In this document: piece by piece, positions 1 to 22,387 of the stretch
How positions within the stretch are numbered: position 1 is the stretch's first letter
How the letters are laid out: every line of letters starts with the position of its first letter
Assembly: GCA_963825135.1 (NCBI GenBank)
Contig: CAWGRW010000013.1
Location: forward strand, 1 to 22,387
Length of the DNA: 22,387 nt
Reading direction: 5' to 3'
Source: an uncultured bacterium
Lineage (GTDB): Bacteria > Desulfobacterota_D > UBA1144 > Nemesobacterales > UBA2774
The notes under the pieces: generated by a model
The model's input: the letters and a program-made list of their open reading frames with translations, nothing else
What the model was told of the DNA's origin: nothing
The model's database searches: none
Program-made: the position numbers and the translations under genes

Positions 1-1
1 C

Positions 2-570: not shown

Positions 571-608
571 ACCCCCACCCTATCCCTCCCCCCTCAAGGG
601 GGAGGGAA
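571..608 (+). repeat. C/G-rich palindrome 'module B' (acccccacccta.ccctccccc-tcaa-gggggaggg)
   Basis: Further copies at ~1422, 2259, 4046, 7662, 7829, 10433, 10600, 13881, plus interrupted copies at ~13592 and 22240; all in the same orientation. Confidence 0.85.
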
Positions 609-643
609 TTTATTGTAGAGCGGGGGAGCATGGAGGAACGCAT

Positions 644-1392: not shown

Positions 1393-1494
1393 TATTGGTC
1401 GATTGATATATGTAATGTTACACCCCCACCCTGACCCTCCCCCCTCAAGGGGGAGGGAATTTATTGTAGAGCGGGGGAGCATGGAGGAACGCAT

Positions 1495-2229: not shown

Positions 2230-2331
2230 TATTGGTCGATTGATATATGTAATGTTACACCCCCACCCTATCCCTCCCCCCTCAAGGGGGAGGGAATTTA
2301 TTGTAGAGCGGGGGAACATGGAGGAAAGCAT

Positions 2332-3085
2332 ATGAAGAATCATCACAAGCTTGCGGGTTTCGTATTCATAATCACTCTTCTGATTTCCCTTACGCCCGCG
2401 CTCGCGCAGGTGACGTTCACTAACGACCAGGCGCAGTTCCTGGCGGATAACCCGAACCTGCAATTCCAGGACTTCTCCGCTACCAAAGTGCAGCCCACAG
2501 ACGGGATGCAGTGCAACGTGCCGGTCAACTCGCAGAGCGACGACGACTGTTTTTCTCCCGGAGACATACTTCCGGAGGCTGGCGTTCTATAACCTGCCGG
2601 TGAACCCGGTCGGAGGGCTGCGTGTTCTCGGCGAGAACGCGGACGGACTAGGCGATCCGCCCGGTCCCATACTAATTGAGTCTTCAGGCACAGACTCGTT
2701 CGACGTCACGGTGAATCCTGGCGCGACACGGATTGGACTGACGGTCGGGTGCTATACACAGGGGGATTGCAATGGCAGCGCCGACGTCACTGTGTTCGAT
2801 ATCCACGAAACTCCGATCGGGCAGACTACAGTAAGTTTGAACGACAAGTTCAATCAATTTTTGGGGATAACGTCCGACGTCCCCATCTGCTGCGTCGTCC
2901 TCGATCACCAGGCCGTGGAAGATCAGGAGCACGGGAACGGCGTGCTCAACGTGTGGTTCGGCGGTAACAACGCGGGCGTTCCCACTCTCTCCGAATGGGG
3001 GATGATCGCTGCTGCGGCGGGATTGGGATCGATCGGCGTGTTATTCGCGGTGAGGAGGAAGAGAAGGGCGATTACTGGAATTTAA
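2332..3085 (+). CDS. IPTL-CTERM surface protein, type A; one frameshift near 2576
   Basis: ORFs 2332..2592 (signal peptide...CFSPGDILP) and 2600..3085 (...GVPTLSEWG...RRKRR) join by removing one base (ILP.LAFYNLPVNPV). Confidence 0.87.
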
Positions 3086-3658: not shown

Positions 3659-3670
3659 GGGGATTGCCGA

Positions 3671-4450
3671 GTGTGGATTATGAGAACACCGTGCACCTAA
3701 AGTGGTCTATGAAAAGATAATGAAAAGACAAAGAAAGGCGAAGGGCTGTTTGATTGATCCTTCTTTTCCTCGATGAGAAGAAGCACACGCATAGTGTGGA
3801 TTATGAAAAGACTAGAAAGGTGAAAGGCTGTTTTTTTATCCTTCTTTTCCTTGATGAAAAGAAGCAAAAATCATCCGACTACAGAATTGTGCTAAAAATC
3901 TCATGTACTCGCTAAATCTTCCAATTCTACCCCATCCCACGTAAGATTTTTAACGCTCGTACAATCGATTTTCTTAACGCAAATTCTGTAATGTCGGTAA
4001 CGTGCTTCGACTAGCTCAGCACGAACGGGTTTACATATCTGGGTACACCCCCACCCTAACCCTCCCCCCTCCTATTGAGGGGGAGGGAAATAATTTCGCA
4101 CCCTTCGACAGCACACTACGCGTGCGCTCAGGGTGAACAGGATTGGGCAAATTCCCCGGCGATGGCAGAGGAGTTACGGAAGGATCGTAGAGACACACAT
4201 TGTGTGTGCCCGCCGCGAATTCTGTAATGTCGGAAGATAAAGAAAAAACTAGATTGCCGCGCTTCTCTCGCATTCGTTCGTTACGCTCGCAATGACAAGA
4301 TCAAAGACTGGATTCCCGATGAAGGCTTTCGGGAATGACAGAAAGAAAAGATGAGATTGCTTCGCGTTGCTCGCAATGACAGGGTAAGTCGGGCGGAGGA
4401 GCGCAAGTAGAATCGTGGAAACCCACTGTGTGCGCGTGCGTCTGGTCCCG
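3671..4450. repeat. Mosaic repeat block 1
   Basis: Leader (gtgtggattatga..acaccgtgcacctaaagtggtc), element A 3841-3997, then several REP-like palindromes. Ends at the stop codon of the minus-strand gene at 4452. Confidence 0.9.
3841..3997. repeat. Element A: ~157-bp MITE/REP-like structured repeat (copy 1 of 8)
   Basis: 9-bp hairpin cttcttttc-cttgat-gaaaagaag followed by a long imperfect hairpin ccgactacagaatt...aattctgtaatgtcgg. Other copies: 7106-7261, 9882-10036, 13388-13544, 16124-16365, 16581-16738, 20734-20891, 21924-22079. Confidence 0.93.
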
Positions 4451-5426: not shown

Positions 5427-6845
5427 ATGGAGATGATGAGAAGGGAGATCGGGATATCTTTAGCTTTATGCTTTTTGTTGTTTGCAAGTAGAAGTAATTC
5501 AGAAGAATTAACCTTTTGCGTACTCGACGATTTTCTTCAAATAGTGACTTTCAGAGGGCCCGGTACGGAATGTCTCGAACAGGAGGTTCCTATTCAGGTA
5601 AATGCCGGGGAACAGGGACCGCCCGGACCTATGGGACCGGAAGGACCCCAGGGACCAATCGGTCCTGAGGGAGCGGTCGGACCAATCGGACCTCAGGGAC
5701 CCATCGGATCTACGGGAGCGACCGGGGCTACGGGACCTACGGGGACGGCGGGGACGGACGGGCTCAACGCGTTTGTGAACACGACGCCCGAGCCCGCGGG
5801 AGCTAACTGCGCGGACGGCGGCGTAAAGGTCGAATCCGGACAGGACAATATCGTTTCCAGCACTACTTACGTATGCAACGGGCCCGAGGGACCTCAGGGA
5901 CCAATCGGCCCGACAGGGACAACAGGTGCGACCGGAGCAACGGGTCTAACCGGACCAACCGGAGCAGTAGGACCCATCGGTCCAATCGGGCCTACAGGCG
6001 CGACCGGGGCTACGGGACCTACAGGGCCTGCTGGTACGGACGGGCTCAACGCATTTGTGAACACGACGCCCGAGCCCGCGGGAGCTAACTGCGCGGACGG
6101 CGGTGTAAAGGTCGAATCCGGGCAGGACAATATCGTTTCCGGCACTACTTACGTATGCAACGGGCCCGAGGGGACAACAGGGCCTGCCGGACCTGCGGGA
6201 CCAGCAGGGCCAGCCGGGCCTATCGGACCCGCCGGACCCACGGGAACGACAGGGGCTACGGGCCCTGCCGGGCCAGCCGGGCCAACGGGAACGACCGGAG
6301 CTACCGGTTCTACAGGGGCTACGGGGCCTGCCGGGCCAGCCGGACCCGCCGGGCCAACGGGAACGACCGGAGCTACCGGTGCTACGGGGGCTACGGGGCC
6401 TCAGGGGCCTAAGGGTGATCCCGCACCTGCCGGCGTGACTATATTGTCAGGCGGGTCTCGTATTAATATCCTAACCGGAGCATCTGCCACTTCTACATTC
6501 ATAGATATGTTTTTGGAGAACTCCAGTGCTACTGAATCTGTAGTTCAACATAGCTTGCCCGTTTCGGGCGCACTTGTGGGTCTAAATATCTTATTAGACA
6601 ATACTATAGGTGCCGCACCCAACAGTTATGCATTCACGGTGATGGTGGGCGGCATAGCAAGTTCTATCACCTGCACGGTGAGCGGGCCGTCCGGGACAAC
6701 CTGTTCCAGTGCGTTATGCGTTGATCTGGCTGCGAATGCATCGATCGATGTACGTAGCGTTTCAAACGATAATCCCACCGCGCGGACCGTATGGTTGTAT
6801 TCTACGTTCCGTCCCGGCATGACGTGCGCGGCGCTCGGGTTATGA
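5427..6845 (+). CDS. Secreted collagen-like (Gly-X-Y) protein with two Cys-bracketed repeat domains (DUF7151-like) and a C-terminal globular domain
   Basis: N-terminal hydrophobic signal; three GXY runs (GPT/GAT/GPA); two copies of [33 protein letters not shown], 282 bp apart. Start may be 5433/5436 given the AGGAG position. Confidence 0.9.
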
Positions 6846-6934: not shown

Positions 6935-7935
6935 CCGCTGCCGCAAATTGTGTAACGTTCGGGGAAAGAGAAAAGATAGATTTCTCGCCTCAGGCGAGAA
7001 ATGACGGGAAGATTCATGTAGGAGCAGCTTCCGGCCGCGACACAAGCGTAGTGTGATCTTTCGAAAAGACAAGACAAAGAAAGGTGATAGGCTGTTTTTT
7101 TTATCCTTCTTTTCCTTGATGAAAAGAAGCAAAAATCATCCGACTACAGAATTTGCTAAAAATCTCATGTACTCGCTAAATCTTCCAATTCAACCCCACC
7201 CCGTGGAAGATTTTTAACGCTCGTACAATCGATTTTCCATACGCAAATTCTGTAATGTCGGGGGAGATAAAAGAAAAGACAGATTTCTCCCGTTGGTCGA
7301 AATGACAGTAAAGGAGATGCTTGAGATCGTATGCCCGCGGGTGCTCACCCGCCGCAAATTCTGTAATGTCGGGAAGAGAAAGAACAAACTAAATCCTCCC
7401 TAACCTACTTGGACTTCAGAAGCATTGAGCCGGAAGTTAAGTTCCTTCTTTGCTCTTTAGAGTAGGGCGTCCGAATGCTCACCTATTCGCATCCGTTCTT
7501 TTTCTAAGGAGGGAATAGAGATAAAGACGAGATTGCTTCGCTTCACTCGCAATAACGGGAAAGGAGATGCTTGAGATCGTATGCCCGCGGGTGCTTACCC
7601 GCCGCGAATTCTGTAATGTCGGGAAGAAAAGACTCCCTGATTGATAGTAGTGATAAGGTAAACCCCCCACCCATACCCTCCCCCTCAAGGGGGGAGGGAG
7701 ATAAGATTACCGTCCTTCGACAGGCTCAGGGTGAACGGGGCGGCGTGTCGCCGCTGACGTACGAAAACGTCACGATTGCCGGTTTGAGTGAGGAGTTTCG
7801 ACAGGATCGTATATGAGCACACATTGTACACCCCCACCTTAATCCTCCCCCTTGCGGGGGGAGGGAAATTATTGGTCGGGATAAGGAAGTCCACTAGAAT
7901 CGTATAGACACACGCCGTGTGTGCGTGCGCGCGAA
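6935..7935. repeat. Mosaic repeat block 2
   Basis: Includes a GTAG-type REP (tgtaggagcagcttccggccgcga ~7017), element A 7106-7261, insert 7407-7497 and other modules; abuts the dacB stop codon. Confidence 0.9.
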
Positions 7936-9547
7936 TCAATAGTCGCGCCAGAGGACTGCGGATATTGTGCCCTCGTCCTGGAATATTTCGAGAAGGTCGT
8001 TGAGCTGCTTAACCGGGACATTGTTGACGACGAGCTGGTAGACGAGGCGTCTGCCGCTCTTCGCGTCGATATAACCGCCGAACGCCTGTCCCTTTATCAC
8101 GAGACCCGATGCGTCACCGGCCGCGAACGTGCCGGTCTTTGCGCGCACCCGTCCCTTCGCCCCGGCTAACGTCGGATCGGACTCGAAATCGGTCACGAAA
8201 CCGAGAGAGCCGTCCACTCCGAGTATCGGCAGCGCAGCGAAGAACGCGCCGAACGCCGGCTTCCCGGTCATTATCCTGAGCCATTCGGTGACTGCTTTGT
8301 TAGTCGCCGTGGTCCCGCCGCCGCCGCTTCCGTCGATGAAGAAGAACTCGCCGCCCGGTATGCCGAAATTCTCCGTGAGATTAACCCTCTCGGCCGCGAG
8401 TGCCGCGTTCATGTTGTCTACCCCCTGCGTAAGCCCGAATAAAACCAGACTGGTATCCGCGCCGATGTTATAGCTCACTTTCAAAATCAGCTTCGCAGTC
8501 TCGGAATAGGGCAGTCCTTTGAGCTCTGCCAGTTTTGTTTGAGGCGTGTACGAGTTTCGGGCTGGAAGCAACTGCGCCGGGTTTTCGGCTACGGAGGATG
8601 CGCGGACCGTTACGCCCGCAGCCTTGAGCGCCTCGATGAATACGGTGCGCGCGTAGTTCGAAGGCTGTGTAATGCGGAAGGCCTGCACCAAGGGGTACTT
8701 GTTGGTGAGTGGAGGAATAAAATCAACTGGAATCTGCCCGGCTATGGCTGCCGTGCAACCAGTCTTGCCGATGCACTCAGGTGCTACCGGCTTTAAGGCG
8801 AGCGTATTCTGCGAATGCGCGGCGCTGGTAACCAGATTGTTCTCGACCCCGAGTGCTGCCGAGACCGGACGCCACACTACCGAGGCAGGTTTGCCCGGAG
8901 TCGTGGGCCGGATGCTCAGATCCACCAGATCGCCGTTGACGAAAATAGGTCTAACGTCGAACTGGCCTCTGAAGTTAAAAGGCTGAAAGAGCCGGTCGTC
9001 GATAATGACGTTGCCGGTAACCTCCTTTACCCCTGACTTCGCCACCTGCTGAGCTAACTGGATATACCCAGCCAGCGGGTTAGGCTTGGTGAGCGTAGCG
9101 TTCCCCAGGCTGTCGGCCTCGTTGTGGTCGAAATTGGCGACCGCGATCGTGCCGTCCGGATTCGTTCGTCCGCCCATGGTGAGGTCGCCTGACGCGACCA
9201 ACACCAGGTCGCCGTGCAGCACGCCGGCGCTGTTCAACTCCCCGTGGCGATAGACCGGTGTGTTGTAGCGGTGGTCAGGACCTACCTGGTTCAGCAACTC
9301 TCCCACGGAAAAAATCTTGCGCACCGAGCCGATGTAGAAATTGCAATGCGGCTGCAGATCCATGAGTTCTTTGCCGGTGCCGAGATCTACGACTCGCAGT
9401 CCCCAGATAGAGCCTGAGTAAAGCGCCTTGTCGAATGTCGCGCGTATGTCGGCCGGGATGTTCGAGCCCGAGCCGCGAAGCCCTTGTACAGGACGAAACG
9501 GCAATCAGGACCAGTAAAAACACGAGTAGAGCTTTCCGGTATCTCAT
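7936..9547 (-). CDS. dacB: D-Ala-D-Ala carboxypeptidase/endopeptidase (peptidase S13, PBP4-like), paralog 1; frameshift near 9480-9500
   Basis: Motifs SVRK (SxxK), SYN (SxN) and KTGT; also GDLVLVASGDLT and DGSG. Signal peptide MRYRKALLVFLLVLIAVSSC starts at 9547 with a GGAGG RBS, in a different frame from ORF 7936..9504. Confidence 0.88.
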
Positions 9548-9714
9548 GCATTATCCTCCGTCAAGACAGGGTGATTTTGATTAACAGAAAATATAACGGT
9601 AAACAATTATAGCCTCGGTTGGGGGGGAAAGGGAAATGGGGGGAGGAAAATACGGGATTGCCGAACTTGCTTGCTCTTTTGAGGAAGATAAATAAAAAGA
9701 AAAGGCGAATATAT

Positions 9715-10704
9715 TATCTCTTCTTTTCCTTGATTAACGCAAGCAGTGTGGTCTTTCGGAAAGACAAGACAAAGAAAGGTGATAGGCTGTTTTTTTTATC
9801 CTTCTTTTCCTCGATGAGAAGAAGCACACGCATAGTGTGGATTATGAAAGACGAGAAAGGTGAAAAGCTGTTTTTTTTATCCTTCTTTTCCTTGATGAAA
9901 AGAGAAAAATCATCCGACTACAGAATTGTGCTAAAAATCTCATGTACTCGCTAAATCTTCCAATTCTACCCCACCCCGCGTAAGATTCTTAACGCTCGTA
10001 CAATCGATTTTCTTAACGCAAATTCTGTAATGTCGGGGAGATAAAGAAGAGCAATTTCTCCCGTTGGTCGAAATGACAGTAAAGGAGATGCTTGAGATCG
10101 TATGCCCGCGGGTGCTCACCCGCCGCAAATTCTGTAATGTCGGGAAGAGAAAGAACAAACTAAGTCTCCCTACCTACTTGGACTTCAGAAGCATTGAGCC
10201 GGAAGTTAAGTTCCTTCTTTGCTCTTTAGAGTAGGGCGTCCGAATGCTCACCTATTCGCATCCGTTCTTTTTCTAAGGAGGGAATAGAGATAAAGACGAG
10301 ATTGCTTCGCTTCACTCGCAATAACGGGAAAGGAGATGCTTGAGATCATATGCCCGCGGGTGCTCACCCGCCGCAAATTCTGTAATGTCGGGGAAGAAAT
10401 AATCTCCCTATTGATAGTAGTGATAAGGTAAACCCCCCACCCACACCCTCCCCCTCAAGGGGGAGGGAGATAAGATTACCGCCCTTCGACAAGCTCAGGG
10501 TGAACGGGGCGGCGTGTCGCCGCTGACGTACGAAAACGTCATGATTGCCGGTTTTGAGCGTAAGAGTTTCGGAAGGATCGTATATGAGCACACATTGTAC
10601 ACCCCCACCTTAATCCTCCCCCTTCGGGGGAGGGAAATTATTGGTCGGGATAAGGAAGTCCACTAGAATCGTATAGACACACGCCGTGTGTGCGTGCGCG
10701 CGGA
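9715..10704. repeat. Mosaic repeat block 3 (near-copy of block 2)
   Basis: Same module order and near-identical sequence to ~7060-7935, including insert 10176-10266; has one extra leader unit. Confidence 0.9.
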
Positions 10705-12314
10705 TCAATAGTCGCGCCAGAGAATCGCCGAGATGGTGCCTTCGTCCTGGATCACTTCGAGAATGTCGAGAAACGCATTCAACCTGACGTTGTTGACGAC
10801 GACCTGATAGACGAGCCGTCTCCCGCTCCTGGTGTCGATGTACCCGGCGAACGCCTCGCCCTTCACGACGAAACCCGTCTCGTCCCCGCCGGCGAACGTG
10901 CCGGTCTTGGCGTGCACCTGTCCCTTCGCTCCGGCGAGGGTCGGGTCGGACAGGAAACCGTCGACGAACACCATGGAGCCATCAACGGCGAGGATCGGGA
11001 GCGAGTCGAAGAAAGCCTCGAACGCCGGCTGCTCCGCCATGATCTCGAGCCATCTCGTCACGACCTCGTTCTTCGCCGTGGTCTCGCCGCCGCCGTCGCC
11101 GTTGATGAAGGAGAAGTCGTCTCCGGGAAAGCCGTACACACTCGTCAGCATCTCCCTCTCGGCGACGAGCGCGTCGTCCATGTTGTCGACCCCTTGCGTG
11201 TTGCCCCAGAGGAGGAGGCTCGCGTTCGCCCCCAGGTTGTAACTCAACTTGTTGATCAGCTTCGCGTAGTCGGCGTACGGGAAGGAGGTGAACGACGTCA
11301 CGAGGTCTTCCTCGGAATACGAGTTCCTGGGCGGGAGCTTCGCCACGGGATTCTCGGCCACGGGATCGGCAAGCACGGTGACGCCCGCGTTCTCGAGAAG
11401 CTCGATGAGCACCGTACGCGCGTAGTTCTGCGGCTCCGTGATCCTGATCGTCTGGACGAGCGGGAACTCGTTCGTGAACGGGGGGACGAAGTCCACCGGA
11501 AGCTGTCCGGACACGGCGGACGTGCAGCCGGGCTCGCCGATGCAGGCGGGGAACCCGGGGTCGATCCGAGGGTGAACTCCGTGCCCGGGCCCGACGTGAC
11601 GAGATGGTTCACGACCCCGAGTGCTGCTGATCGGGGACGCCAGTCGACCACGGCGGGCATGCCCTCCGAGCCGGGACTCATGATGAGATCGACGCAGTCG
11701 TCGTTGACGAAGATCGATCTCATGTCGAACTCTCCCCTGAACGAGTAGGGTTCCCAGAGTCTGTCGTCGATGACGACGTCGTTCACCTGGATGATGCCCG
11801 AGGCCGCGATCTGCTGCGCGATGGCCTTGTAGCCCTCGAGCGGGTCGGGCTTCGTGAGCACGGCATTGCCAAACGAGCTGGCTTCGTTGTGGTCGAAGTC
11901 GGTGATCGCAAACTGCCCGTCCTCCTTCGTCCTGCCGCCCATCGAGATGTCGCCCGAAGCGACGAGGATCAGGTCGCCGTCGAGAACCCCCGCGCCGTCG
12001 ACTTCGCCTCGCTTGTAGATGGGTGTGATGAAGAGGTGATCGGGTCCTAGTTCGTTGAAGAGTTCGCCGACGGAGAAGATCTTCCTCACCGAGCCGATGA
12101 GGAAATCGTAATCGGGCCTGTAGTTGATCAGGACCTCGCCCGTGTCGAGGTCCTGGACCCGAAGCCCCCAGACAGAGTCCGAGTAGAGCGGCTTGTCGAA
12201 GATCGCGCGGATGCTGGCGGGGACCTTCGAGTCCCCGCTCGACGAGCAGGCCTCGAGGCCAAAAGCGGCCGTCACGACCAATAAGAACGCGAGTAAAGGT
12301 TTCCGGTATTTCAT
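10705..12314 (-). CDS. dacB: D-Ala-D-Ala carboxypeptidase/endopeptidase (peptidase S13), paralog 2, lipoprotein; frameshift near 11567
   Basis: ORFs 11298..12314 (lipobox-like LEA-C, SVRK) and 10705..11514 (SYN, KTGT, ...LWRDY) join into a protein collinear with paralog 1. Confidence 0.88.
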
Positions 12315-12506
12315 GTACTATCCTCCGTTAAGAGAGTGCGATTTAGCTTATCAGGAAAATATAATAATAAACAATTATAACCTTGGCTGGAGGTGTATGG
12401 GAAATGGGGGGCTATTTCCGTCGTCGTGAACCATGTCCCGTGCCGCGCGCCGGTAGCTCGAACAAGGATTGGGAATATTCAGCGGTTGGAACTTCTGATT
12501 ATTGAC

Positions 12507-13176
12507 TCACAACGCTTCGTGCATCTTCGCCGAGGAGGCGGGGTCGACGGGGAATTTCACGCTCTCGTAGAAGATCGCCAGGGTGCATTCGGACTTGTCG
12601 TCGGCAGACTTCCTGTCGTCGAGCTCGATCATGATTTTAGTCCTGTCGTTTATCGTGGGCCAGATGTACCTTAAACCGTATCTCCCCGTGCATATCTCCG
12701 CGGGGTGCTCGTAGACGGTGTCCTCGCTCTCGTTCTCGGCGTATTTCGCCTGTCCGTCGGGCTCCTTCCCGGTCTCCTCGGTTATCTTGTCCGTTCGCCT
12801 GTCAAACTCGTCGATATAGCCCTTCGCGTCCGCCTTGGGGTTGTCCATGTGGAGTATGGCCATGCCGAGCTTGCCGTCCGGGAAGAGGTAGACGAGGTTG
12901 TAGTCGGGTACGTCGATATCCATGGATAGCTCCATTGATTTCCCATCCAGGTCGGGATGCGTATGGATAATTTCGCGCGTAGGCCCGCCTTTGACGAAGT
13001 ATACGAGTATGCTGTCAGTTTCCTTGATTTTCTCGGCCTTTTCGTGCTTCATGGCACTCTTCTTTCGACATGCCCCACTTAACGTCCCTCAGGTCGGGCT
13101 TTTCGCCCGCCGCGAAGGACAGGGCCGCCGGGGATAGCAATAATAAGGCGATTACGGCAAGTGATTTGATGTTCAT
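12507..13176 (-). CDS. Secreted hypothetical protein, 'WGM' family member 1; frameshift near 13055
   Basis: MNIKSLAVIALLLLSPAALSFA signal and PDLRDVKWGMSKEE, continuing into ORF 12507..13052; homologous to 14110..14807. Confidence 0.78.
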
Positions 13177-13269
13177 GGGTCTCCGCTCCCGTTCAGGGTG
13201 TTGCGGATATTATAGTGCCGGAAGGGCGGGGGACGCAAGAGGGGGATGTGTGCCGATGGTCGAACGGGA

Positions 13270-14109
13270 GGGCTCGCAATGACAAAGGAAAGGCGAAAGG
13301 CTATTTGATTTATCCTTCTTTTCCTTGATGAACACACATAGTGTGAACTTTCGAAAAGACACAGAAAAAGCAAAGACAATAGATTTTCTTCTTTGTCTGG
13401 ATACAAAGAAGCAAAAATCATCCGACTACAGAATTGTGCGGAAAATCTCATGTACTCGCTAAATCTTCCAATTCAACCCCACCACGCGTAAGATTCTTAA
13501 CGCTCGTACAATCGATTTTCCATACGCAAATTCTGTAATGTCGGTAACGTGCTTCGACTAGCTCAGCGCGAACGGGTTTACATATCTAGGTACACCCCCA
13601 CCCTGGCTGTTTTGGCCTAGGCAACGTAAAGCCGGAAGTTAATGTACTTCGGTGACTTCGCTGAGAGAGTGACCAGTTGCGCGCTTGCTTGCAACTGTTC
13701 CCCCCTCCTATTGAGGGGGAGGGAAATAATGTTCGCACCCTTCGACGGGCTCAGGGTGAACGGATTGGATTGTGCCGAGGGGGGATGTGAGAGATCATAT
13801 GCTCGCGGGTGCTCACCCGCCGCAGATTCTGTAATGTCGGGAAGAAAAGACTCCCTGATTGATAGGAGTGATAAAGGTAAACCCCCACCCATACCCTCCC
13901 CCTCAAGGGGGAGGGAGAGAAGACATGAGAGCCCTTCGACGGGCTCAGGGTGAACGGGGCGTCGCGTCGCCGCTGACAATCGAGAGCATTGCGGAAGCGG
14001 AGGAGTCGCACTAGAATCGTAAAAACGCACTATGTGCGTGTGTGCCCGCCGCAAATTGTGAAATGTCGGGGAAAGGAAAGACGAGATCGCCGCGCTGCGT
14101 TTCACTGCG
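13270..14109. repeat. Mosaic repeat block 4
   Basis: Leader, element A 13388-13544, then a segment paralleling 3998-4140 but with an insert at ~13608-13699; abuts the stop at 14110. Confidence 0.9.
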
Positions 14110-14807
14110 CTAGAGTGTCTCGTGGAGCTCGTTCGAGAGGGCGGGGTCCATCGGGTACTTCACGCTCTCGTAGAAAACGGAGAGGTTGCAGTCGGGCTCG
14201 TGGGAGAACTTCTTCTGGTCGAGCACTATGGTGATGTCGGTGCTGTTTTTGAAAGTGGGCCAGGCGTGTTTGAGGGAGTACTGTCCTTCGCAAATCTCCC
14301 GGGGCGCGGAATAGGGGTCGTCCTTCGGCGCGCTCACGTCGTACTCGGCGACTCCCGAGGCGGGGGTGCCCGTCTCCTTCGAAATCTCCGCGGACTTTTC
14401 CCTGAGGAGCCTGATGTATTCGGCGGGGTCCTGGGCAGTATCGCGGAGGTGAAGCACGGCCATGCCTAGCCTGCCGTCCTTAAACGCGTAGACGACGTCG
14501 TATTCGGGCTCGGGCGTTTCGACCTCTATGGTTACGCGCGGACTCTCCCGGGCGCTGCCGTCCCCGGGCTTCGCGTCGAGTCTCGACCTTTACCGTGCCC
14601 TCGGATTCAACGGTCGCGAACCCGCCGCCGATCCTGTAAATCAGCACCTCGTTGCCCTCCTTCATGAGCTCCGCGGTCTCGCGTTTCCTGACCTCTTCTT
14701 TGGACATGCCCCACCTTACGTCCCTGAAATCGGGCTTCCTGTCGCGCGAGCAGGACGACGCGGCGAGGGATATCGATACCGCAAGAAATATAGCTCTCTA
14801 GTTGCAT
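14110..14807 (-). CDS. Hypothetical lipoprotein, 'WGM' family member 2; several frameshifts
   Basis: Reconstructed MQLRAIFLAVSISLAASS-C...PDFRDVRWGMSKEEV. C-terminus EICEGQYSLKHAWPT...FYESVKYPMDPA..HETL matches member 1 (EICTGRYGLRYIWPT...FYESVKFPVDPA..HEAL). Confidence 0.75.
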
Positions 14808-14909
14808 CCGAGGTCCTCACACCGGGCGGGGGGGAGAGGGATATATTATGTTCGGGGGAGGGGGAATAAGCAAGGAATGGGGGGTTATTCCGGTGAAGTG
14901 GAATATGAG

Positions 14910-15803
14910 TTATCGAGTGTCTTCCAAAAACTCCTCGATCGCGTTGAGTACGGCGGCGGGTGCGTCCTCCTGGAGAAAGTGCGAGGCGTCGGGTATCTCG
15001 ACTGAGCGGGCGTGCGGATAGACGCTCTTCCAGATCTCGAGCAGGACCGGCGGGAGTATCGGGTCGAGCATGCCCCACACTATGAGCACGGGGATGTTCT
15101 CGAACATCCCAAGATTCTTTTCTATCGCCGCCATGTCGTCCCACGAGGGATCCCCTTCGTCGACCGGGATGTCCCTCGACCAGCAGAGGAGCGCCCGCCT
15201 CGATTCGGGCGTGGGGAAGGGCGCCATGTACGCGCCCATCACCTCGGGGGTTATCTTCTCCGGATAATTCACAGTGCCCGTGATCGCGCGGCCGACGTAC
15301 CCGTTTTTCTCCAGCACGAACTGCTCCCCGCGCGGGGACCTTATCATCTCGACAAGTTTCGGGAAGGGCGCTCCGGGCCAGCGCGCGAAGGCCCAGGTGT
15401 TCGTGAGCACGAGGCGTTTTATGAGTTCCGGGCGTCTCACGGCGAAGCCCAGGCCGACGGGGCCTCCCCAGTCGTGGACTACGAGCGTGATGTCCGAGAG
15501 GCCTAACGAGAGGACGAGCGATTCGAGGTTGTCTATGTGGCGGCCGAGGCGGTAAGGGTAGGGCCCTTCGGGCGCGTCCGATTTGCCCATGCCCATGTGG
15601 TCGGGGACAATGACGCGGCGCCCGGCCGATAGAGCCGGGATGAACTCCCTCCAGAGATACCCCCACGTAGGGTCGCCGTGGAGCATGAGCACCGGCTCGC
15701 CCTCTCCTTCGTCGATATAATGCATATCGAATCCGCCCGCGCCAGAGAAGCGCGGAGCGAAGGGGAACGTGCCGCCGAATGTCTCGTCCCTGATGCCGGG
15801 CAT
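14910..15803 (-). CDS. Alpha/beta-fold hydrolase, haloalkane dehalogenase/OleB-like
   Basis: MHYIDEGEG, LHGDPTW, PDHMGMGKSD, nucleophile elbow VVHDWGG, WGMLD, catalytic SHFLQED. Confidence 0.88.
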   Translation of the reverse strand: MPGIRDETFGGTFPFAPRFSGAGGFDMHYIDEGEGEPVLMLHGDPTWGYLWREFIPALSAGRRVIVPDHMGMGKSDAPEGPYPYRLGRHIDNLESLVLSLGLSDITLVVHDWGGPVGLGFAVRRPELIKRLVLTNTWAFARWPGAPFPKLVEMIRSPRGEQFVLEKNGYVGRAITGTVNYPEKITPEVMGAYMAPFPTPESRRALLCWSRDIPVDEGDPSWDDMAAIEKNLGMFENIPVLIVWGMLDPILPPVLLEIWKSVYPHARSVEIPDASHFLQEDAPAAVLNAIEEFLEDTR

Positions 15804-15949
15804 GACGTTACAACCATACAATATTTATAAGCGGGGTGTCTATGGGGCGGGGCATTCACTCTCGTGAAACGCGGAGGGAGGTAATTACGTGTACGACGCA
15901 CCCGCGCGGCTCAGGCGGAACGGGATTTTTCTCCGTGTATTTCCGCGGC

Positions 15950-17030
15950 CGATGAACACACGTAGTGTGATTTGTGAAAACACCGTGCACCTAAAGTGGT
16001 CTATGAAAAGATAATGAAAAGACAAGAAAGGTGAAAGGCTATATTTTTATCCTTCTTTTCCTTGATGAAAAAGAAGCAAAAATCGCATACATAGTGTGGA
16101 TTATGAAAAGACAATGTTATTTTCTTCTTTGTCTGGATACAAAGAAGCAAAAATCATCCGACTACATAATTTGCTAAAAATCTCGTGTACTCGCTAAATC
16201 TTCCGATCCCGCCCCATCGGAACAGTAGCTTAGCGATGTCCGTGGTTAACTAACGTCGTGCGGATAGGAGAGGGTGTCCGAATGCGCGCTCGCTTGCATT
16301 CGTTCCGCGTAAGATTCTTAACGCTCGTACAATCGATTTTCTCAACGCAAATTCTGTAATGTCGGGAAGGAAAAGACGAGATTGCCGCGCTGCTATGCAG
16401 ATTTGTATATGGTCTGTCCTTCCCATGGCACAGTAGCTTGCTCGCGTTTTGCGGAGGGCGACCGATTGCTTACTAGCTCGCAATCGTTGCAATGACAGGA
16501 AGATTAATGTAGGAGCGGCTTCCAGCCGCGATTTGTTTGAGCGGACAAAGGAGAGACAAAGGAAAAGCCCAATTTTATTTCTTCTTTTCCTTGATGAAAA
16601 GAAGCAAAAATCATTCCGACTACAGAATTATGCTAAAAATCTCATGTACTCACTAAATCTTCCGATTCAACCCCAGCCCACGTAAGATTTTTAACGCTCG
16701 TACAATCGATTTTCTTAACGCAAATTCTGTAATGTCGGGAATATAAAAACGAAAGACGGATTTCTCACTATTAGAATTTGATTCAGCGTTTTGCCAAGCT
16801 CAACAAATTCCGTTCTGGTTAGTGAGAGCGTCCGGTTCTTACGCTTGCTCGGAACCGTTGTTCGAAATGACAGGAAAGGAGATACTTGAGGTCGTATGCC
16901 CGCGGGTGCTCACCCGCCGCAGATTCTGTAATGTCGGAAAGAAAAAGAAAAAACTAGATTGCCGCGGTTTCTGCGAAGCCTCGCAATGACAGGGTAAATC
17001 AGAGAGAGGGGATTTATTTGCGGATTCTGT
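15950..17030. repeat. Mosaic repeat block 5 (two element-A copies, three inserts)
   Basis: Leader, A 16124-16365 and 16581-16738, GTAG-type REP tgtaggagcggcttccagccgcga ~16508; inserts 16219-16304, ~16395-16488, 16771-16859. Confidence 0.9.
16219..16304. mobile_element. 86-nt structured insert inside element A loop (family of 7 inserts)
   Basis: Removing it restores ccgccccatc|ccgcgtaag, the empty loop at 20821-20839, with no duplication. Ends in agggtgtc, a 7-bp stem with 10-nt loop, then tt. Confidence 0.75.
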
Positions 17031-17032
17031 GC

Positions 17033-17761
17033 CTACTGCTGCGGTTCGTCGCCCGCGCCGGAGAGGAGGAATTTGATGGCGTCGGACGAGCGGGCGGGCG
17101 GGAGCTTGAGCGTCTCCGAGTATAGCTCCGCTATGGCGAAGCAGACCTTCTTCTTGTCCTCTTCGGAGAGCTCCGTCTGCGCCGTGTAGTCGATCTCCGG
17201 GCCGTACTTCGCGACGACGTTCGATGAGACGCGGCCTACGTCCCTTTTCGCCTGCTTCACGTCCTTGAGCTTCGCGGGCTCCGTGTGAGCGGACCTGATA
17301 ATGAGCGCAATCGCCCTTAAGACCTCGTTCTGCTCCTCGGGCGTCATGAGGGTCCACATGCACTGCTCGTTGCCGTTTATGAGATCGACGCAGCACTCGG
17401 GGTCGCTGTTTCCGGCCTTCCGGAACACGCCTATGAAGGAAGTGATGAACGCCGAGGTCGCTTCGTGCGAGGCGAGGGGCAGGTCGTTTCCGAGGAGCGC
17501 CGCGATCTTATCGCCGTTGGACGCTATTATATCGTCCATCTTGCCGCCCTTGATAATCGCCGTTTTCGTATCGGACAGTATTTGCTTGTAGAGGTCGGGG
17601 TAGTATTCCTTTATCTCAGGGAACGCGGGGACTTCGAGCATGCGGGACTCGGCCGTGTAGTAGTAGTAGAACCTCATCATCTGGGGGTAGGCCCAGTAGT
17701 AGATTACGAGCACCGCGGCTACGACCGCCAGAATCCTTACGACAGCGCGAATCGGTTTCAT
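17033..17761 (-). CDS. Hypothetical protein with N-terminal membrane anchor (242 aa)
   Basis: Intact ORF with GAGG RBS and hydrophobic ILAVVAAVLVIYYWAY; no family recognised. Confidence 0.8.
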   Translation of the reverse strand: MKPIRAVVRILAVVAAVLVIYYWAYPQMMRFYYYYTAESRMLEVPAFPEIKEYYPDLYKQILSDTKTAIIKGGKMDDIIASNGDKIAALLGNDLPLASHEATSAFITSFIGVFRKAGNSDPECCVDLINGNEQCMWTLMTPEEQNEVLRAIALIIRSAHTEPAKLKDVKQAKRDVGRVSSNVVAKYGPEIDYTAQTELSEEDKKKVCFAIAELYSETLKLPPARSSDAIKFLLSGAGDEPQQ

Positions 17762-17940
17762 CTTGCCTCAATGGGGAAAAATTGCCCGGGATAACTGAAT
17801 TATACTCGGAGAATCGGGAGGTGTGAAATTTTTGCGCGGCGGGTTAAGAACCGGTGAAAAAGGTTTATTATTTCTTTTAATTATGGTATATTGGGCGTAG
17901 ATTAAGCGGAAGGGTGATATGCCCTTATAGGAGGAGCTAT

Positions 17941-18468
17941 ATGAAACACATTATTAAAGCATGTTACGTACTATTGATTATTGCCGTTCCGGGAACCATG
18001 ATCGTCCCCTCGCTCACCCGAAGCGCGGGCGCGCAGAGTTGCGAGCTGGTCATATGCAAGTCGGCCGAAGGCGCGGGGGATACGCCGTTCGAAGTAAGGT
18101 TCGAAGTGGGCGGTGAGGTGGGCAAGGGAGTGCTGGTCGATCAGGGACTGTGCATCCTGCAAACGTTCGATTCGCCCAATACGCTGACAGTCGCGGAATT
18201 GCCGACGCCCGGATGGGTGCTCGACGATGTGTTATGCCCCGGCATCAACGGAATTGAGATCACCGACACCAACGACGGGTTTGTGGCCGAATGCGTGTCG
18301 TCGAGCGCAGGCCACGTGCACGCTGGTCAACGTGAGGGAACGGCCGAGGCGAACGTCCCGACGCTCGGCGAATGGGGCGTGTTAGTATGGCCGCGGGCCT
18401 CGGATTGTATCGGGGTGTTCTTCGCGTTGAAACGGCTTCGGGCGGGCAGAGGCTCCGAGCAGGCGTAA
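17941..18468 (+). CDS. IPTL-CTERM surface protein, type B (possibly prealbumin/SpaA-like beta domain)
   Basis: GGAGG RBS; signal peptide; LVICKSAEGAGD..F and ELPTPGWVLDDVLC motifs; NVPTLGEWG tail with apparent compensating indels. Confidence 0.8.
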   Translation: MKHIIKACYVLLIIAVPGTMIVPSLTRSAGAQSCELVICKSAEGAGDTPFEVRFEVGGEVGKGVLVDQGLCILQTFDSPNTLTVAELPTPGWVLDDVLCPGINGIEITDTNDGFVAECVSSSAGHVHAGQREGTAEANVPTLGEWGVLVWPRASDCIGVFFALKRLRAGRGSEQA

Positions 18469-18498
18469 GAACCGGAATCGCATCAACTAAGGAAATAG

Positions 18499-18934
18499 AT
18501 GAGGCGGATAATTAAAGCCTGTTGCGTCTTATTGATTATCGCCGTTGCGGAATCATGATCGTCCCCTCTTTCGCGCGGAGCGCGCAGGGCTGCCGGCTGG
18601 TTATATGCCTGGAGGCCGACGGCGCGGGGGATGCGCCTTTCAATATCGGGATCGAGGACGGCGGAAAGACGGAGAAGAAAGCGCTGGTTGATATGGGGTC
18701 GTGTATCCAGGAGTCCCTCGTCCCGTCCGTTACGCTTAAAGTCACGGAGCTGCTGACGCTCGGATGGGTGCTCGACGATGTGGTGTGCACGGGCCTCAGG
18801 GAATAAAGATCACCAAAACGAAGGATGAGTTCGCAGCTAGGTGCGCGTCGTCCGGTGAAGGCGGGTGCACGGTTGAGAACGAGAGGGAGTGGCCGGATAA
18901 TATCCGGCGGGGGATACGGCGGCCAGCGCGGTAA
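18499..18934 (+). CDS. Type-B paralog lacking the IPTL-CTERM anchor (frameshifted; possibly pseudogene)
   Basis: Reconstructed MRRIIKAC..LLIIAV...LVICLEADGAGDAPF...GWVLDDVVC..IKITKTKDEFAARCASSGEGGCTVENEREWPDNIRRGIRRPAR*; collinear with the 17941 gene. Confidence 0.65.
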
Positions 18935-18982
18935 AACATTCGATAGGCGCTGACGTAAATGCGGAATAGGGAGACATACTAT

Positions 18983-19742
18983 ATGCGCGGTATATGTTCG
19001 CTCGGAGCGGTGATAATGTTCGTTATCCTGGCGGCGGTTGTCGGTGCGTCTCCGGCATTTGCGCAGGTAGATTTCCTGTTCGACAAAGGCGAATACATAG
19101 CGAACCATCCGACCAGCTCGTTCAGACCTTTCGAGGCGGGCAACGTAGCCCGGGGCGGCAGCCAGATCTGCGGTGACGTAGTGAACTCGTTCACAAACGA
19201 CGTACTGTTTCCGCCGGCGGACATACTGCCGGGGCTCCAGTTCATGACCAACTTCGTCGGAAAGCCCCTGTATATCGAGGGCGAGCACGTAGGCGGCGAA
19301 GGGAACCCCGGAAAGGTGCTCGGGACGCAGACTGACGGCACTAACGAGTTTCTGGAGATAGAATTCCCGCAGGGCGGGGTACACGCCGCGGGGAATCGTT
19401 CCGGGATGCTTCGACGGATCACCCGGATGCGAGGCTACTTACTTGTTCAGCGTGTACGGCGAGGGTGACGTATTGATCGACGATACGAAGGTGGAGGTGA
19501 CCGACAGGTTCGACACGTTCATCGGATTCGATTCGCCCGTGCCGGTGACGAAGGTCGCCATATCGGACCTGAACGGGACTACGACGTTTGAGGCGGTGGA
19601 TGAGGTGAGGTTCGGCAGGGCGGACGCGAATATCCCGGCTCTGTCGGAGTGGGGAATGATAGCGGCTGCTGCGGGATTAGGATTGGTCGGGGTGTTCTTC
19701 GCGGTGAGAAGGAAACGGCTGCAAGCAAGAATTTCTACTTGA
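18983..19742 (+). CDS. IPTL-CTERM surface protein, type A; frameshift(s) ~19390-19445
   Basis: Signal ...SPAFA-QVDF and FPPADILPGLQF; continues in 19443..19742 with FDTFIG and NIPALSEWGMIAAAAGLGLVGVFFAVRRKR. Confidence 0.83.
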
Positions 19743-19772
19743 ATAAAATAAATAATTTTCGAGGAGGATCGT

Positions 19773-20306
19773 ATGAATAAAGTATTGAATTCGTTTTTGG
19801 AACTTTCGGTATTCATATTGGCGGCCGTCTGTATAGCGTCGTTCGGAGACAGCGCGAGCGCGCAGCCGCCGTGCGCGGTGACAATCTGCAAGTCAGCTCC
19901 GGGAGCGGGGGACCAGGGTTTTCTAATCGATTTCACCGATTCCGGTATGACAGAAACTGTAGAGCTCTTCGACGGAGGGGACTGCATTACGACGCAATTA
20001 AATTTTGACGCCGACGTCGATATCACGGAGCAGCCTACACCCGGCTGGACGCTCGACGATGTCCTCTGCGATTCCAGCACGGGGTTTGAGTTTACCGCTA
20101 TACCGGGTGGTATTACCGCCCTCTGCACGAGTGAGGCTCTGTCTGAGACGACCTGCACATTCGTCAACGTTCCGGGAGTTACGAGTAATGCTATCCCGAC
20201 TCTGTCCCAGTGGGGGATGATCGCGGCCGCTGCGGGATTAGGATTGATCGGAGTGTTCTTCGCCGTCAGGAAACGGTTACAAGCGAGCAACGAATTCGAT
20301 GAATAA
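19773..20306 (+). CDS. IPTL-CTERM surface protein, type B (intact, 177 aa)
   Basis: GAGGAGG RBS; signal peptide; VTICKSAPGAGD, EQPTPGWTLDDVLC and TCTFVN motifs; AIPTLSQWG TM tail. Confidence 0.92.
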   Translation: MNKVLNSFLELSVFILAAVCIASFGDSASAQPPCAVTICKSAPGAGDQGFLIDFTDSGMTETVELFDGGDCITTQLNFDADVDITEQPTPGWTLDDVLCDSSTGFEFTAIPGGITALCTSEALSETTCTFVNVPGVTSNAIPTLSQWGMIAAAAGLGLIGVFFAVRKRLQASNEFDE

Positions 20307-20477
20307 GAGAATTCGGACGCCCTGAGCTGAGAATCTCGAATGCTTGTGTTCATAGGATGATCTATTGAACCCGAAATAAACCGGACGCCAAAGGCTCATT
20401 GCGGAATTCTTATCGACACTGCATAGAAGTAATTGAAGCCAAAGTGAGGGCGCAGGCGGTATAGACGGGAAATAACA

Positions 20478-21057
20478 GCGAGATTCCCGATAGATGCTCA
20501 CGGGAATGACAGAAAGGAAAAGCGGGACCCTGAAACCAGTTCAGGGTGACTTCGAAGTTGCCCCTTTCTTCCGCAATGGAGGGAAGGGGCTTTTTTTACG
20601 GTCGGAGAGAAAGACAAAGAAAGGCGCAAGGCTATTTGATTGATCCTTCTTTTCCTTGATGAAAAGAAGCACACACATAGTGTGAACATTCGAAAAGACA
20701 AGAGAAAGGAAAAGGCTAAGACAATATTATTTTCTTCTTTGTTCTGGATACAAAGAAGCAAAACTCATCCGACTACAGAATTGTGCTAAAAATCTCATGT
20801 ACTCGCTAAATCTTCCAATTCCGCCCCATCCCGCGTAAGATTTTTAACGCTCGTACAATCGATTTTCTTAACGCAAATTCTGTAATGTCGGGGAAAAAGA
20901 AAAAACTAAATCCCCCTTAATCCCCCTTTTTCTAAGGGGGAAATTGAAGGGAAGAGACCCTTCGACAGCACACTTCGTGTGCGCTCAGCACGAAGGGGTT
21001 TGGCTTCGCTTGTTGGTTGAGCTGAGGAGTCACGGAAGAATCGTAGAGACACACAAT
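20478..21057. repeat. Mosaic repeat block 6
   Basis: REP-like modules, leader, element A 20734-20891, further palindromes; ends ~20 bp before the stop of the minus-strand gene at 21078. Confidence 0.88.
20560..20597 (+). terminator. Rho-independent terminator after second IPTL array
   Basis: gcccctttcttcc-gcaat-ggagggaaggggc followed by T7. Confidence 0.8.
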
Positions 21058-21077
21058 GAGCGAGCGGGCCGGATGTT

Positions 21078-21671
21078 CTACGGCTGCTGATTGAGCTTCC
21101 GCCCCTCGACGCGCGGGTTTAACTTCACGCTGTAGTAGAGCACCGAGAGGATTGTGTTCACGTTCCCCTCCCTCGAGAGTCAGGAATATTTCGGTCTCGG
21201 GCGTTTTCCAGGAGGTCTGGAGCACCAGCTTCCCTTCCGTCACGGCCTTGCCGTACGCCTCGGGCTTTTCCTCCTGCTGACCCGGGCTCCAGGTCTTCCA
21301 GTCCTCCGCAGGCTTGCCGAATTGCCCGGCGAGGACGCCCTTTACCCTCTCGTAGTCCTTCACGTACTGCTCGAGGGTCCTCGTACTTGTTCGTCACGGC
21401 GTATCCGCCCAGGACAAGCTTGTCGTTCGTGAACAGGTATCCGATCTCCGCGTCGAGCCCCTCGTACTTCCCCCTGTAGCTAATGGCGAGGTCGTAGGGC
21501 GGCAGAGTTTGGTCTCGCTTACGGGTGTGCCGTTCTCCGTGAGCTTCACCTGCGCCGGGGTCATGCCCCAGCGGGTTTTCCTGAAGTCGTGGGTTTTGTT
21601 GTCCGCGCGGGATTCGGGGGCCAGGACGGTGAGTATTAGGCCGCGATCAGGGCGAGCGTGATAGGTTTCAT
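21078..21671 (-). CDS. Secreted hypothetical protein, 'WGM' family member 3; several frameshifts
   Basis: Reconstructed MKPITLALIAA..LTVLAPESRADNKTHDFRKTRWGMTPAQVK...YERVKGVLAGQFGKP...WKTPETEIFLTL...LSVLYYSVKLNPRVEGRKLNQQP*; GGAG RBS. Confidence 0.72.
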
Positions 21672-21764
21672 CGGCGTGTTCTCTCCCTCCGTAGAATTAT
21701 ACATGCAGATCGGGCAAAAGGCGGGGTTCCGCTCTGCTTTGCGGCATTCGATGCGGGAGAAAAG

Positions 21765-22387
21765 GCAAAGGAAGGTGGAAGGCTGCTTTTTCATCCTTCT
21801 TTTCCTTGATGAAAAGAAGCAAAAATCACACACGTAGTGTGGATTATGAAAACACCGTGCACCTAAAGTGGTCTATGAAAAGATAATGAAAAGACAAGAA
21901 AGGTGAAAGGACTTTTTTTAATCCTTCTTTTCCTTGATGAAAAGAAGCAAAAATCATCCGACTACAGAATTGTGCTAAAATTCTCATGTACTCGCTAAAT
22001 TTTCGATCCCGCCCCGGCCCACGTAAGATTTTTAACGCTCGTACAATCGATTTTCTTGACGCAAATTCTGTAATGTCGGTGACGTGTTTCGACTAGCTCA
22101 GCACGAACGGGTTTGGCTTCGCTTGTTCGTTGAGCTGAGGAGTTACGGAAGAATCGTATATGAGCACACATTGTGTGCCGCAAATTCTGTAATGTCGGGA
22201 AGGAAAAGACTTTCTTGCTTGATTGGAGTGTAATGTAAACCCCCCACCCTTAACCACATGCTCGACAAATCGGAGAGCATGGTCACAGTTGCTTAAGTGG
22301 CCAAAGGGTTCAAGCGTCCTACTTCTCGCTCGCTCGAAGCAGTTCCCCCTCCAGGGGGAGGGGAATATTTCGTCCTTCGACCATTCG
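21765..22387. repeat. Mosaic repeat block 7 (runs off window)
   Basis: Leader, element A 21924-22079, REP-like modules, and an insert at ~22256-22344 in module B. Confidence 0.88.

Follow-up and report, generated by a model that had tools for sequence, protein, structure and literature searches.

What are the short sequences that interrupt the hairpins of other repeats in the genome of an uncultured bacterium (Desulfobacterota_D; UBA1144; Nemesobacterales; UBA2774), and how did they get there? The stretch of DNA analyzed here, in the following called the window, has a length of 22,387 nucleotides and comprises the entire contig C13 (CAWGRW010000013.1) of a 3.13-Mb, 17-contig, 94%-complete assembly (GCA_963825135.1, genome G000). 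A model that had seen the letters of the window alone (the sequence-only reading) described seven inserts of about 90 nt within palindromes. Our analysis revealed a clade-specific family of discrete, polar, gene-less units of about 90 nt at lineage-specific positions in multi-copy targets. In general terms, these units are on balance probably mobile and mobilized in trans. The more specific explanation that we prefer has in our judgement an even chance of being correct: a lineage-specific superfamily of non-autonomous, extended DNA insertion elements which resemble repetitive extragenic palindromes (REPs) and are mobilized by a trans-acting enzyme.

The copies were collected by a regular-expression scan of the whole genome which gave 122 candidates in its strict and 281 in its relaxed form. 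From the latter, 121 were retained on stem and loop criteria and clustered by their 5' parts. Removal by eye of 17 chance matches in coding sequences left 104 curated copies in 52 sequence clusters, the largest with seven members. One representative per cluster constituted alignment A1 (n = 52). A covariance model, R1, was built on the 45-nt right-end module. In G000 it gave at least 142 matches at E ≤ 1, a lower bound because 150 of 1013 first-look candidates were scored. Thus, the covariance search that had been suggested along with the seven inserts did find further copies, in this genome and in relatives.

The elements are 86–92 nt long and share one plan: a left end, a variable body of about 55 nt, a GCGWC tag, a hairpin of 7 bp and a final GTT. 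The left terminus is RWTTTKG-like and forms no terminal inverted repeat with the GTT end; the loop of 10-11 nt reads ..CTYGCTY. A full-length alignment of the 52 representatives showed homology from end to end, with TTTTGG, tag, loop and GTT conserved. The motif TT(T)(T)KG or TCTGG was present 52–72 nt upstream of the hairpin in 34 of the 52, compared with 9 of 52 in a control interval, and some sub-lineages have GTTAA in mid-body as well as a box resembling TGCAATCAGCC. In the 104 copies, the final five bases of the linker were GCGAC (43), GCGTC (33), CCGAC (11), GTGAC (6), GTGTC (5) and others (6). The tag is thus CGTC or a one-base variant, CGAC being commoner than CGTC. Loops measured 10 nt in 67 copies, 11 nt in 36 and 12 nt in one.

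The stem is conserved as a structure. In alignment A1 its first pair was C-G in 50 of 52 representatives, 95.1% of the stem cells were paired, and double changes occurred at six of the seven pairs (92 cells). The covariation score was reached in 0 of 500 shuffles, and slid registers paired in 21–59%. Since A1 had been selected by a hairpin scan, a pattern of tag, loop motif and TT that did not demand stem pairing was run as well. Among its matches with a 10-nt loop, 40 of 51 had 6-7 of seven Watson-Crick pairs, one had 5 and ten had at most 3; with an 11-nt loop, 10 of 17 had 6-7 pairs. When partners were shuffled, 4 of 80 reached 6 pairs. RNAalifold predicted the terminal hairpin alone from the alignment of the 52 representatives, and for neither strand did the bodies alone fold better than shuffles (mean z -0.23 and -0.12). 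A long-range stem in which the left end or left flank would pair with the pre-tag region and so close the element was rejected (duplex energies of true pairs, mean -11.7; of mismatched pairs, -11.1; p = 0.27). The description as structure-conserved elements therefore applies to the terminal hairpin, where covariation upholds it, but not to the body, which is unstructured on both strands.

Insertion was examined by anchoring the 14-nt flanks of each copy and searching the genome for both flanks close together. Empty-site candidates were obtained for 63 of the 104 copies, and in 47 of the 63 the net length difference was 84–89 nt. In the palindromic hosts of G000, comparison of empty and filled sites showed no target duplication. 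Usually about 3-4 target bases were missing at the filled site: CTC or TTC in poly-C palindromes, CTT for insert I5, ATGC for insert I6, and GCTT or ACGC for copies nested in hairpins of the family itself. Insert I4 and cluster 1 represent clean insertions. The proposed precise insertion without duplication consequently stands as far as the duplication is concerned, with empty and filled pairs throughout the genome, but the usual loss of 3-4 bases qualifies its precision. Among the sites compared, the left junction showed no conserved target tetranucleotide.

All seven inserts of the window were found, each 86–94 nt long and ending in linker, hairpin and TT; their AGRGYGWC-type linkers, stems of 6-7 bp and 10-11-nt loops had been read correctly, as had the two A.C mismatches at stem position 3, in I1/I2 and I7. 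According to empty sites, I5 starts at 16401 (88 nt) rather than at 16395 and I6 at about 16769, while I1 and I2 probably begin one base earlier than noted. On the plus strand, I1 (cluster 4; 7406–7497; R1 score 38.1 bits) lies in the AAATCCTCCC...GGAGGGA palindrome, and its tagged hairpin at 7453–7497 has the stem CGAATGC/GCATCCG with the A.C at position 3. I2 (10175–10266, plus strand) has the same sequence and lies inside a segmental duplicate of the I1 region; the two elements are 100% identical, their flanks 95 and 94%. I3 (cluster 3; 13608–13699, plus strand; 40.4 bits) is located in the 5' arm of the poly-C palindrome CACCCCCACCCT...GAGGGGGAGGG, whose empty sites read ACCCTAACCCT|CCCCCC, and an empty site of this host type occurs at 4046–4087 on the plus strand. 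I4 (cluster 2; 16219–16304, plus strand; 41.5 bits) occupies the loop of the AAATCTTCC...AAGATT palindrome; its empty sites read CCCCATC|CCACG or CCCCATC|CCGCG, and one of its host type lies at 20821–20839 (plus strand).

The remaining plus-strand inserts follow the same pattern. I5 (cluster 6; 16401–16488; 51.6 bits) is found in the loop of the GATTGCCGCG...GCAATGACA palindrome, and its empty form, GCTGCTATGCAG-CTT-GCAATG, was seen directly at a paralogous locus on contig C10. I6 (singleton cluster 67; 16769–16859; 45.4 bits) is in the loop of the GATTTCTC...CGAAATGACA palindrome with the empty site GATTTCTCAC-ATGC-GTTCGAAATGAC. I7 (cluster 17 type; 22256–22344; 38.1 bits) is again in a poly-C palindrome, the empty site of cluster 17 being CCATCCTCACC-TTC-CCCCC; it represents the 105th copy of G000 and was absent from the regular-expression scan because it is too close to the contig end.

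The list of seven had overlooked two copies, both on the minus strand. The eighth full copy, e117 (cluster 10; 20289–20378; 38.5 bits), lies within the hairpin of an outer copy and splits the latter into a 5' part at 20379–20444 (body, tag and first 5 stem bases; 13.1 bits at 20379–20402) and a 3' part at 20272–20288 (loop remainder, 3' stem arm and TT). Model R1 accordingly gave eight matches at 38–52 bits in the window and a ninth, partial one at 13 bits. The common orientation that had been stated for the seven inserts holds true and mirrors the polarity of the repeat mosaic around them. Of the 16-nt motif AATTCTGTAATGTCGG, the window contains 17 occurrences, always on the plus strand, and the genome 161 if up to one mismatch is allowed; 47 of the 48 elements with this motif within 400 nt share its orientation. 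Relative to neighboring open reading frames (ORFs), orientation was roughly even (28/22/19/19, from crude gene calls).

The siting of the inserts inside other palindromes was confirmed and extends to the loops of the family's own hairpins. Nested copies of seven clusters (10, 12, 14, 22, 55, 58 and 68) occupy hairpins of other family members. The nesting point is constant, with entry after stem base 5-7 and the host resuming at loop base 3, and the receiving hairpins have arms of differing sequence. Overall, the targets comprise at least five palindromic repeat types, family hairpins, tRNA 3' ends, the 3' ends of genes for IPTL-CTERM proteins and phage-like contigs, and within several multi-copy targets the copies sit at a fixed position and in a fixed orientation. 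One element lineage is located on the conserved 3' end of the IPTL-CTERM genes. Complementarity between element and target, as seen in I6 (TAGTGAGA and TCTCACTA), was considered as a guide-like rule and rejected, as it does not generalize.

At tRNA genes the elements form arrays. The targets were tRNA-Arg(CCT), tRNA-Glu(TTC), tRNA-Arg(TCT) and, twice, tRNA-Arg(ACG), the last two being near-duplicate copies on contigs C9 and C14. Units of 74–77 nt alternate with 9–15-nt copies of the tRNA 3' end, which gives a period of about 88 nt. The arrays carry the tag and hairpin of the window inserts, and even one nested copy; because tag and hairpin are identical in plan, arrays and inserts constitute one family. 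Two ideas on the arrays were discarded. Insertion after a mimic of the element's own tail fits the arrays only and not the palindromic hosts, and the D-arm-like similarity in one array, which might have indicated a tRNA-derived origin like that of short interspersed nuclear elements, was inconsistent across arrays.

The family is confined to a part of the phylum. At E ≤ 0.001, R1 matched 31 of 61 relatives; by genus they included 9 of 9 genomes of g1, 7 of 7 of g4, 1 of 1 of g5, 3 of 3 of g6 and 7 of 10 of g2. The genome G034 from another family gave 23 matches, and R1 found none in the near-complete same-family genomes G011 and G015. At E ≤ 1e-5, 29 of the 120 searched genomes of the phylum, G000 included, were positive (family f1, 26/32; f3, 1/1; f7, 1/15; f8, 0/37; f9, 0/19). 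At least 40 matches were obtained in 15 of 17 genomes when the g1 relatives, G000 and g4 were taken together. The host palindrome GATTTCTC...CGAAATGAC is present in 41 copies in G003 and in 35 in G012; it was not found in G011, G015 or G034. In addition, six true copies with 0-1 stem mismatches occur in four IMG/VR contigs which encode terminase or tail-tube proteins, and in two related contigs of this kind one and the same position upstream of the tube gene is taken by different host-plus-element composites. At loci L093, L094, L096, L097, L098 and L101 of IMG/VR, elements together with host palindromes lie between the genes of phage-like contigs.

The borders of the elements are sharp. In 33 pairs with elements at least 95% identical and distal flanks unrelated, mostly from clusters 0 and 3, mean identity was 97.3% within the element, and over the adjoining 30 nt it was 75.9% on the left and 81.5% on the right. 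This supports the description of the units as discrete; their description as gene-less and polar, with one structure-conserved hairpin end, was upheld as well. Copy e003 combines a cluster-6 body and left host with an e102-type hairpin and right host, a chimera from which exchange at the conserved tag is evident. When species of the genus are compared, the orthologous intergenic region ranges from about 0.3 to 5.3 kb.

Mismatches in the stems point to the strand that folds. The 35 distinct stems contain 15 A.C, 4 G.T and 3 other non-Watson-Crick cells; the scan had penalized A.C and G.T equally. At stem positions 2, 3 and 6, each with two common pair types, the A.C cells represent intermediates between these. 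One such stem, CGAATGC/GCATCCG, recurs in four clusters and in one copy of species G009, and 17 listed copies from relatives contain five A.C-type mismatches and two G.T. The A.C excess fits the suggestion of the sequence-only reading that the minus strand folds with G.U or G.T pairs. The evidence that the complementary, unwritten strand folds is good but not conclusive, because the A.C events are not all independent.

Which enzyme could act on such a site? Profile searches of G000 gave no match to PF01548 (IS110), PF00078 (reverse transcriptase), PF07282 (TnpB), PF00239 (serine recombinase) and PF01609 (DDE_Tnp_1). PF04986 (Y2 HUH) was likewise unmatched in G000, but this result is uninformative because the control genomes were silent too. 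G000 holds a few rve-type genes, and the elements have neither inverted ends nor fixed duplications. A longer, enzyme-encoding version of the element was sought in the gaps between neighboring copies, which hold ordinary cargo genes; the neighboring ORFs of about 170 aa were rejected as enzymes since they encode IPTL-CTERM secreted proteins. Eight tyrosine-recombinase matches were obtained in G000, namely XerD, XerC, a Xer-like protein of 285 aa (C9:698153-699007), an integrase of 365 aa (C9:289086-290183) and fragments.

We propose that tag and hairpin serve as the handle for a trans-acting, structure-specific DNA strand-transferase. This enzyme would read the single-stranded hairpin on the strand complementary to the written one, would join exactly after GTT and would not be a Y1 HUH transposase; the tRNA arrays would record repeated integration with a shared core. 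Its assignment as a tyrosine recombinase acting on a folded site is a tentative guess, less likely than not to be correct. Such an enzyme is preferred because of the tRNA-end cores, the tandem arrays, the recognition of structure instead of sequence, the invariant GTT and the exchange at the module, and because other site-specific recombinase families were not detected in G000. Integron integrases on attC and XerCD on CTX phage DNA are tyrosine recombinases that use folded sites. The elements resemble attC and the CTX phage attP in that structure is conserved over sequence, one strand folds, GTT stands at the joint and tandem arrays occur, and by this analogy a tyrosine recombinase is a plausible enzyme. 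The core sites of attC are R'' and R', RYYYAAC and GTTRRRY. Unlike attC, the elements have no extrahelical bases and no cassette ORF, they enter many different repeat targets, and GTT alone is shared.

Several observations weigh against this explanation. The profile searches of G000 for transposases and recombinases did not identify the mobilizing enzyme. No integron integrase was found among the G000 recombinases, the best TIGR02249 score being 159.7 bits at a cut-off of 265, and the hairpin of the elements is without the R and L boxes of attC. The distribution of the Xer-like paralogue does not match that of the elements: the element-free genomes G011, G022 and G026 possess it, as do 5 of 6 f7 genomes, and none was found in the element-bearing G034. 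In families f1 and f7 this gene is inherited vertically. To our knowledge, the loss of 3-4 target bases is a feature of neither tyrosine recombinases nor HUH enzymes. All 22 non-self locus pairs (flanks of at least 150 nt on both sides, at least 85% identity) were filled in both copies, so there is no sign of very recent movement, and 34 of 52 clusters are singletons, hence there were no bursts. Each element lineage is tied to one multi-copy target, a pattern that would also result if the target copies underwent gene conversion or concerted evolution. Contigs of four DNA metagenome runs gave only repeat-confounded joints and nothing decisive; one contig omits 16215–16308 with different letters in between, and is most likely another host-repeat copy.

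The main rival is hitch-hiking by recombination between repeated targets. Here, a few ancient illegitimate insertions into multi-copy repeats would have spread and been homogenized without a transposase, by homologous recombination or gene conversion between the dispersed host copies, and tag and hairpin would persist owing to a use for the cell or the repeat system, for instance as a protein-binding DNA or RNA hairpin. Such a history would account for the single position of every lineage in one multi-copy target, the many singleton clusters, the lack of long-flank empty/filled polymorphisms in the 22 locus pairs, the transposase missing from the G000 profile searches and the chimeras joined at the conserved tag. 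It also agrees with the co-distribution of hosts and elements, as seen for the palindrome GATTTCTC...CGAAATGAC in G003 and G012 as opposed to G011 and G015. Against it, identity drops from 97% to 76–82% within 30 nt of the borders, so that conversion tracts must stop at the element, and only about 15-30 nt of homology is available in the host arms. The hairpins that receive nested copies have arms of different sequence, and at least about ten unrelated target types, phage-like contigs among them, still require de novo insertions. We regard hitch-hiking as unlikely.

The sequence-only reading had favored a mechanism of the HUH type (IS200/IS605, TnpA-REP/RAYT), in which a Y1 enzyme, here unassembled or too divergent, moves a single-stranded transposon. 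The structure-conserved terminal hairpin, the tetranucleotide tag 5' of it, the strand polarity and the lack of duplication are all in keeping with this, the mismatch asymmetry fits a single folding strand, and the gene could be missing from a genome that is 94% complete. In addition, the TnpA of IS200 recognizes secondary structures located subterminally at the insertion sequence's ends, as stated in the available part of PMC6006769. The distribution of the Y1 family argues otherwise. PF01797 had no match in G000; it was present in 6 of the 31 element-bearing and 21 of the 30 element-free relatives, in 2 of the 16 genomes with at least 40 element matches and in none of the seven g4 genomes. 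Moreover, the elements have a hairpin at one end only and lack a conserved target tetranucleotide at the left junction. On the 2.79-Mb contig C9, plus and minus copies are mixed in both GC-skew domains, without clear replichore bias, although arrays and rearrangements blur this test. Duplications of tRNA ends and the loss of 3-4 target nucleotides are likewise not known as features of the HUH Y1 family. We consider a Y1-moved transposon very improbable.

Equally doubtful is an element that acts at the RNA level, with the complementary-strand hairpin as a processing or stabilizing signal or a small RNA in transcripts and with copy number as duplicated functional modules: G.U-type tolerance on one strand, stem covariation, the conserved loop sequence, arrays directly behind tRNA genes, where co-transcription would occur, and the RNA role argued for many REPs in the available part of PMC3733652 speak for it, yet the conserved pairs number only seven, the body carries no folding signal and RNAalifold finds nothing else, no Rfam match at E ≤ 1 overlapped any window copy, orientation relative to ORFs is about even, 4 of 6 copies on phage-like contigs have the written strand and not its complement as coding sense (as read from the ORF list), and empty and filled sites show a DNA insertion whatever its later use. 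The small structured RNA that the sequence-only reading had offered as an option is therefore weakly supported at most: its terminal hairpin is conserved, but Rfam is unmatched and orientation relative to genes looks random.

We return to the preferred explanation, trans-mobilized insertion elements, and to its relation to known systems. The sequence-only reading did not recognize the element. The plan of tag, hairpin and tail is in fact known from the CGTC-tagged REPs, but the measures that define these differ from ours. According to the available part of PMC3733652 (Di Nocera, De Gregorio and Rocco 2013), a dedicated transposase is apparently missing for the CGTC-tagged REPs, among which is the dRS3 of Neisseria with its location in mosaic intergenic regions. 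As in the elements described here, an unpaired CGTC-like tetranucleotide stands at the hairpin foot and a short unpaired tail follows, stems are heterogeneous, copy number is high, copies cluster in mosaic intergenic regions and some REPs lie inside other palindromes. As far as the same part of PMC3733652 extends, the differences are as follows. The stem is 7 bp here and starts from C-G, compared with 8-9 bp from A-T pairs; the loop is 10-11 nt instead of 4-5 nt, and the tail TT instead of CCA. Our unit has a constant length of about 90 nt with a defined far end, the REP unit 20-40 bp. The elements form no head-to-head dimers, and they do form tRNA-linked arrays and nest in their own hairpin. 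Because stem, loop, tail and unit measures differ, the elements fall outside the families CGTC-1 to CGTC-4 of that source. Literature searches yielded no description of such elements in this lineage.

Other known systems share single traits with the family. Like REPIN/RAYT and IS200/IS605 with their gene-less derivatives, the palindrome-associated transposable elements (PATEs), the units are gene-less, hairpin-bearing and polar, cause no target duplication and are thought to be moved in trans. Unlike these, they have one hairpin rather than two and neither a GTAG tag nor a conserved target tetranucleotide, no clear replication-strand bias was observed, and no Y1 enzyme is present or co-occurs. 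Miniature inverted-repeat elements of DDE transposons differ in possessing terminal inverted repeats and a fixed-length target duplication. In E. coli, tRNA-linked repeats follow a tRNA gene as a tandem series in which every unit closes with a copy of the tRNA 3' end. The units of the present arrays, in contrast, are members of a dispersed family of insertion elements that has targets other than tRNA genes as well, and the arrays would therefore originate by repeated integration. A further possibility, which we consider rather doubtful, is a new class of gene-less mobile element with one structure-read hairpin handle and a short far end. Its sub-lineages would each home to a different repeated target, namely their own hairpin loop, other palindromes, tRNA 3' ends, gene tails or intergenic sites of phages. 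Movement would depend either on an enzyme that belongs to none of the known transposase families or on Xer-type recombinases of the host that act on folded single strands, and this process would also create the tRNA-linked arrays.

The copying of REP-type repeats without a RAYT is an open question that closes the available part of PMC3733652. The nature of the tRNA-linked repeats is likewise unexplained. For both questions the family offers clean handles: exact empty and filled sites, self-nesting at a fixed hairpin position, tRNA arrays and phage-like copies. The contrast among relatives is sharp, with all g1 and g4 genomes positive and G011 and G015 of the same family free of elements and of host palindromes, so that a comparative search for the responsible protein is feasible.

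The elements also alter genes. Copy e117 and its outer element supply the last ~13 codons and the stop (20266–20306) of the ORF at 19773–20306 on the plus strand, which encodes an IPTL-CTERM secreted protein with the C-terminus ...VFFAVRKRLQASNEFDE. Both ...RKRLQASNEFDE and the stop codon come from the outer and nested minus-strand copies. Thus, two nested copies of the window end a secreted-protein gene. Paralogues of this ORF on contig C9 likewise end in ...AVRKRLQASA.

Apparent remnants of elements were noticed as well. At G012:C19:9988-10024, the GATTTCTC...CGAAATGAC palindrome holds only the loop end, the 3' stem arm and TT, which looks like a 5'-deleted element relic. The window contains at 4262–4300 a similar ...GCATTCGTT inside a GATTGC palindrome. 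On contig C9, where the cumulative GC skew has its minimum at about 1.28 Mb and its maximum at about 2.24 Mb and the arms are very unequal, nearly all elements lie within 0-0.7 Mb and 2.2-2.79 Mb.

The intergenic regions of the window (3660–4440, 6950–7930, 9650–10690, 13240–14100, 15940–17010, 20600–21060 and 21760–22387) are polar mosaics of many repeat modules, punctuated by AATTCTGTAATGTCGG. Their layout recalls mosaics of the BIME/NIME type, yet they are strictly oriented. Large parts of the window recur elsewhere in the assembly at 93–99% identity, with intergenic content that differs; near-identical pairs include window 14900–17800 with G000:C10:184031-187268 and the window with C9:1-7300, and one C10 copy of a duplicated region carries an additional gene. 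These copies represent either true segmental duplications or co-assembled strain variants.

The ORFs beside the mosaics at 14110–14800, 18300–18900 and 21100–21700 look frameshifted or truncated; the split frames are paralogues of 12507–13052 and of the IPTL-CTERM genes. Positions 1–3085 hold four tandem paralogous IPTL-CTERM genes with poly-C palindromes (CACCCCCACCCT...GGGGGAGGG) between them, and the ORF at 5427–6845 encodes long, internally duplicated collagen-like Gly-X-Y repeats.

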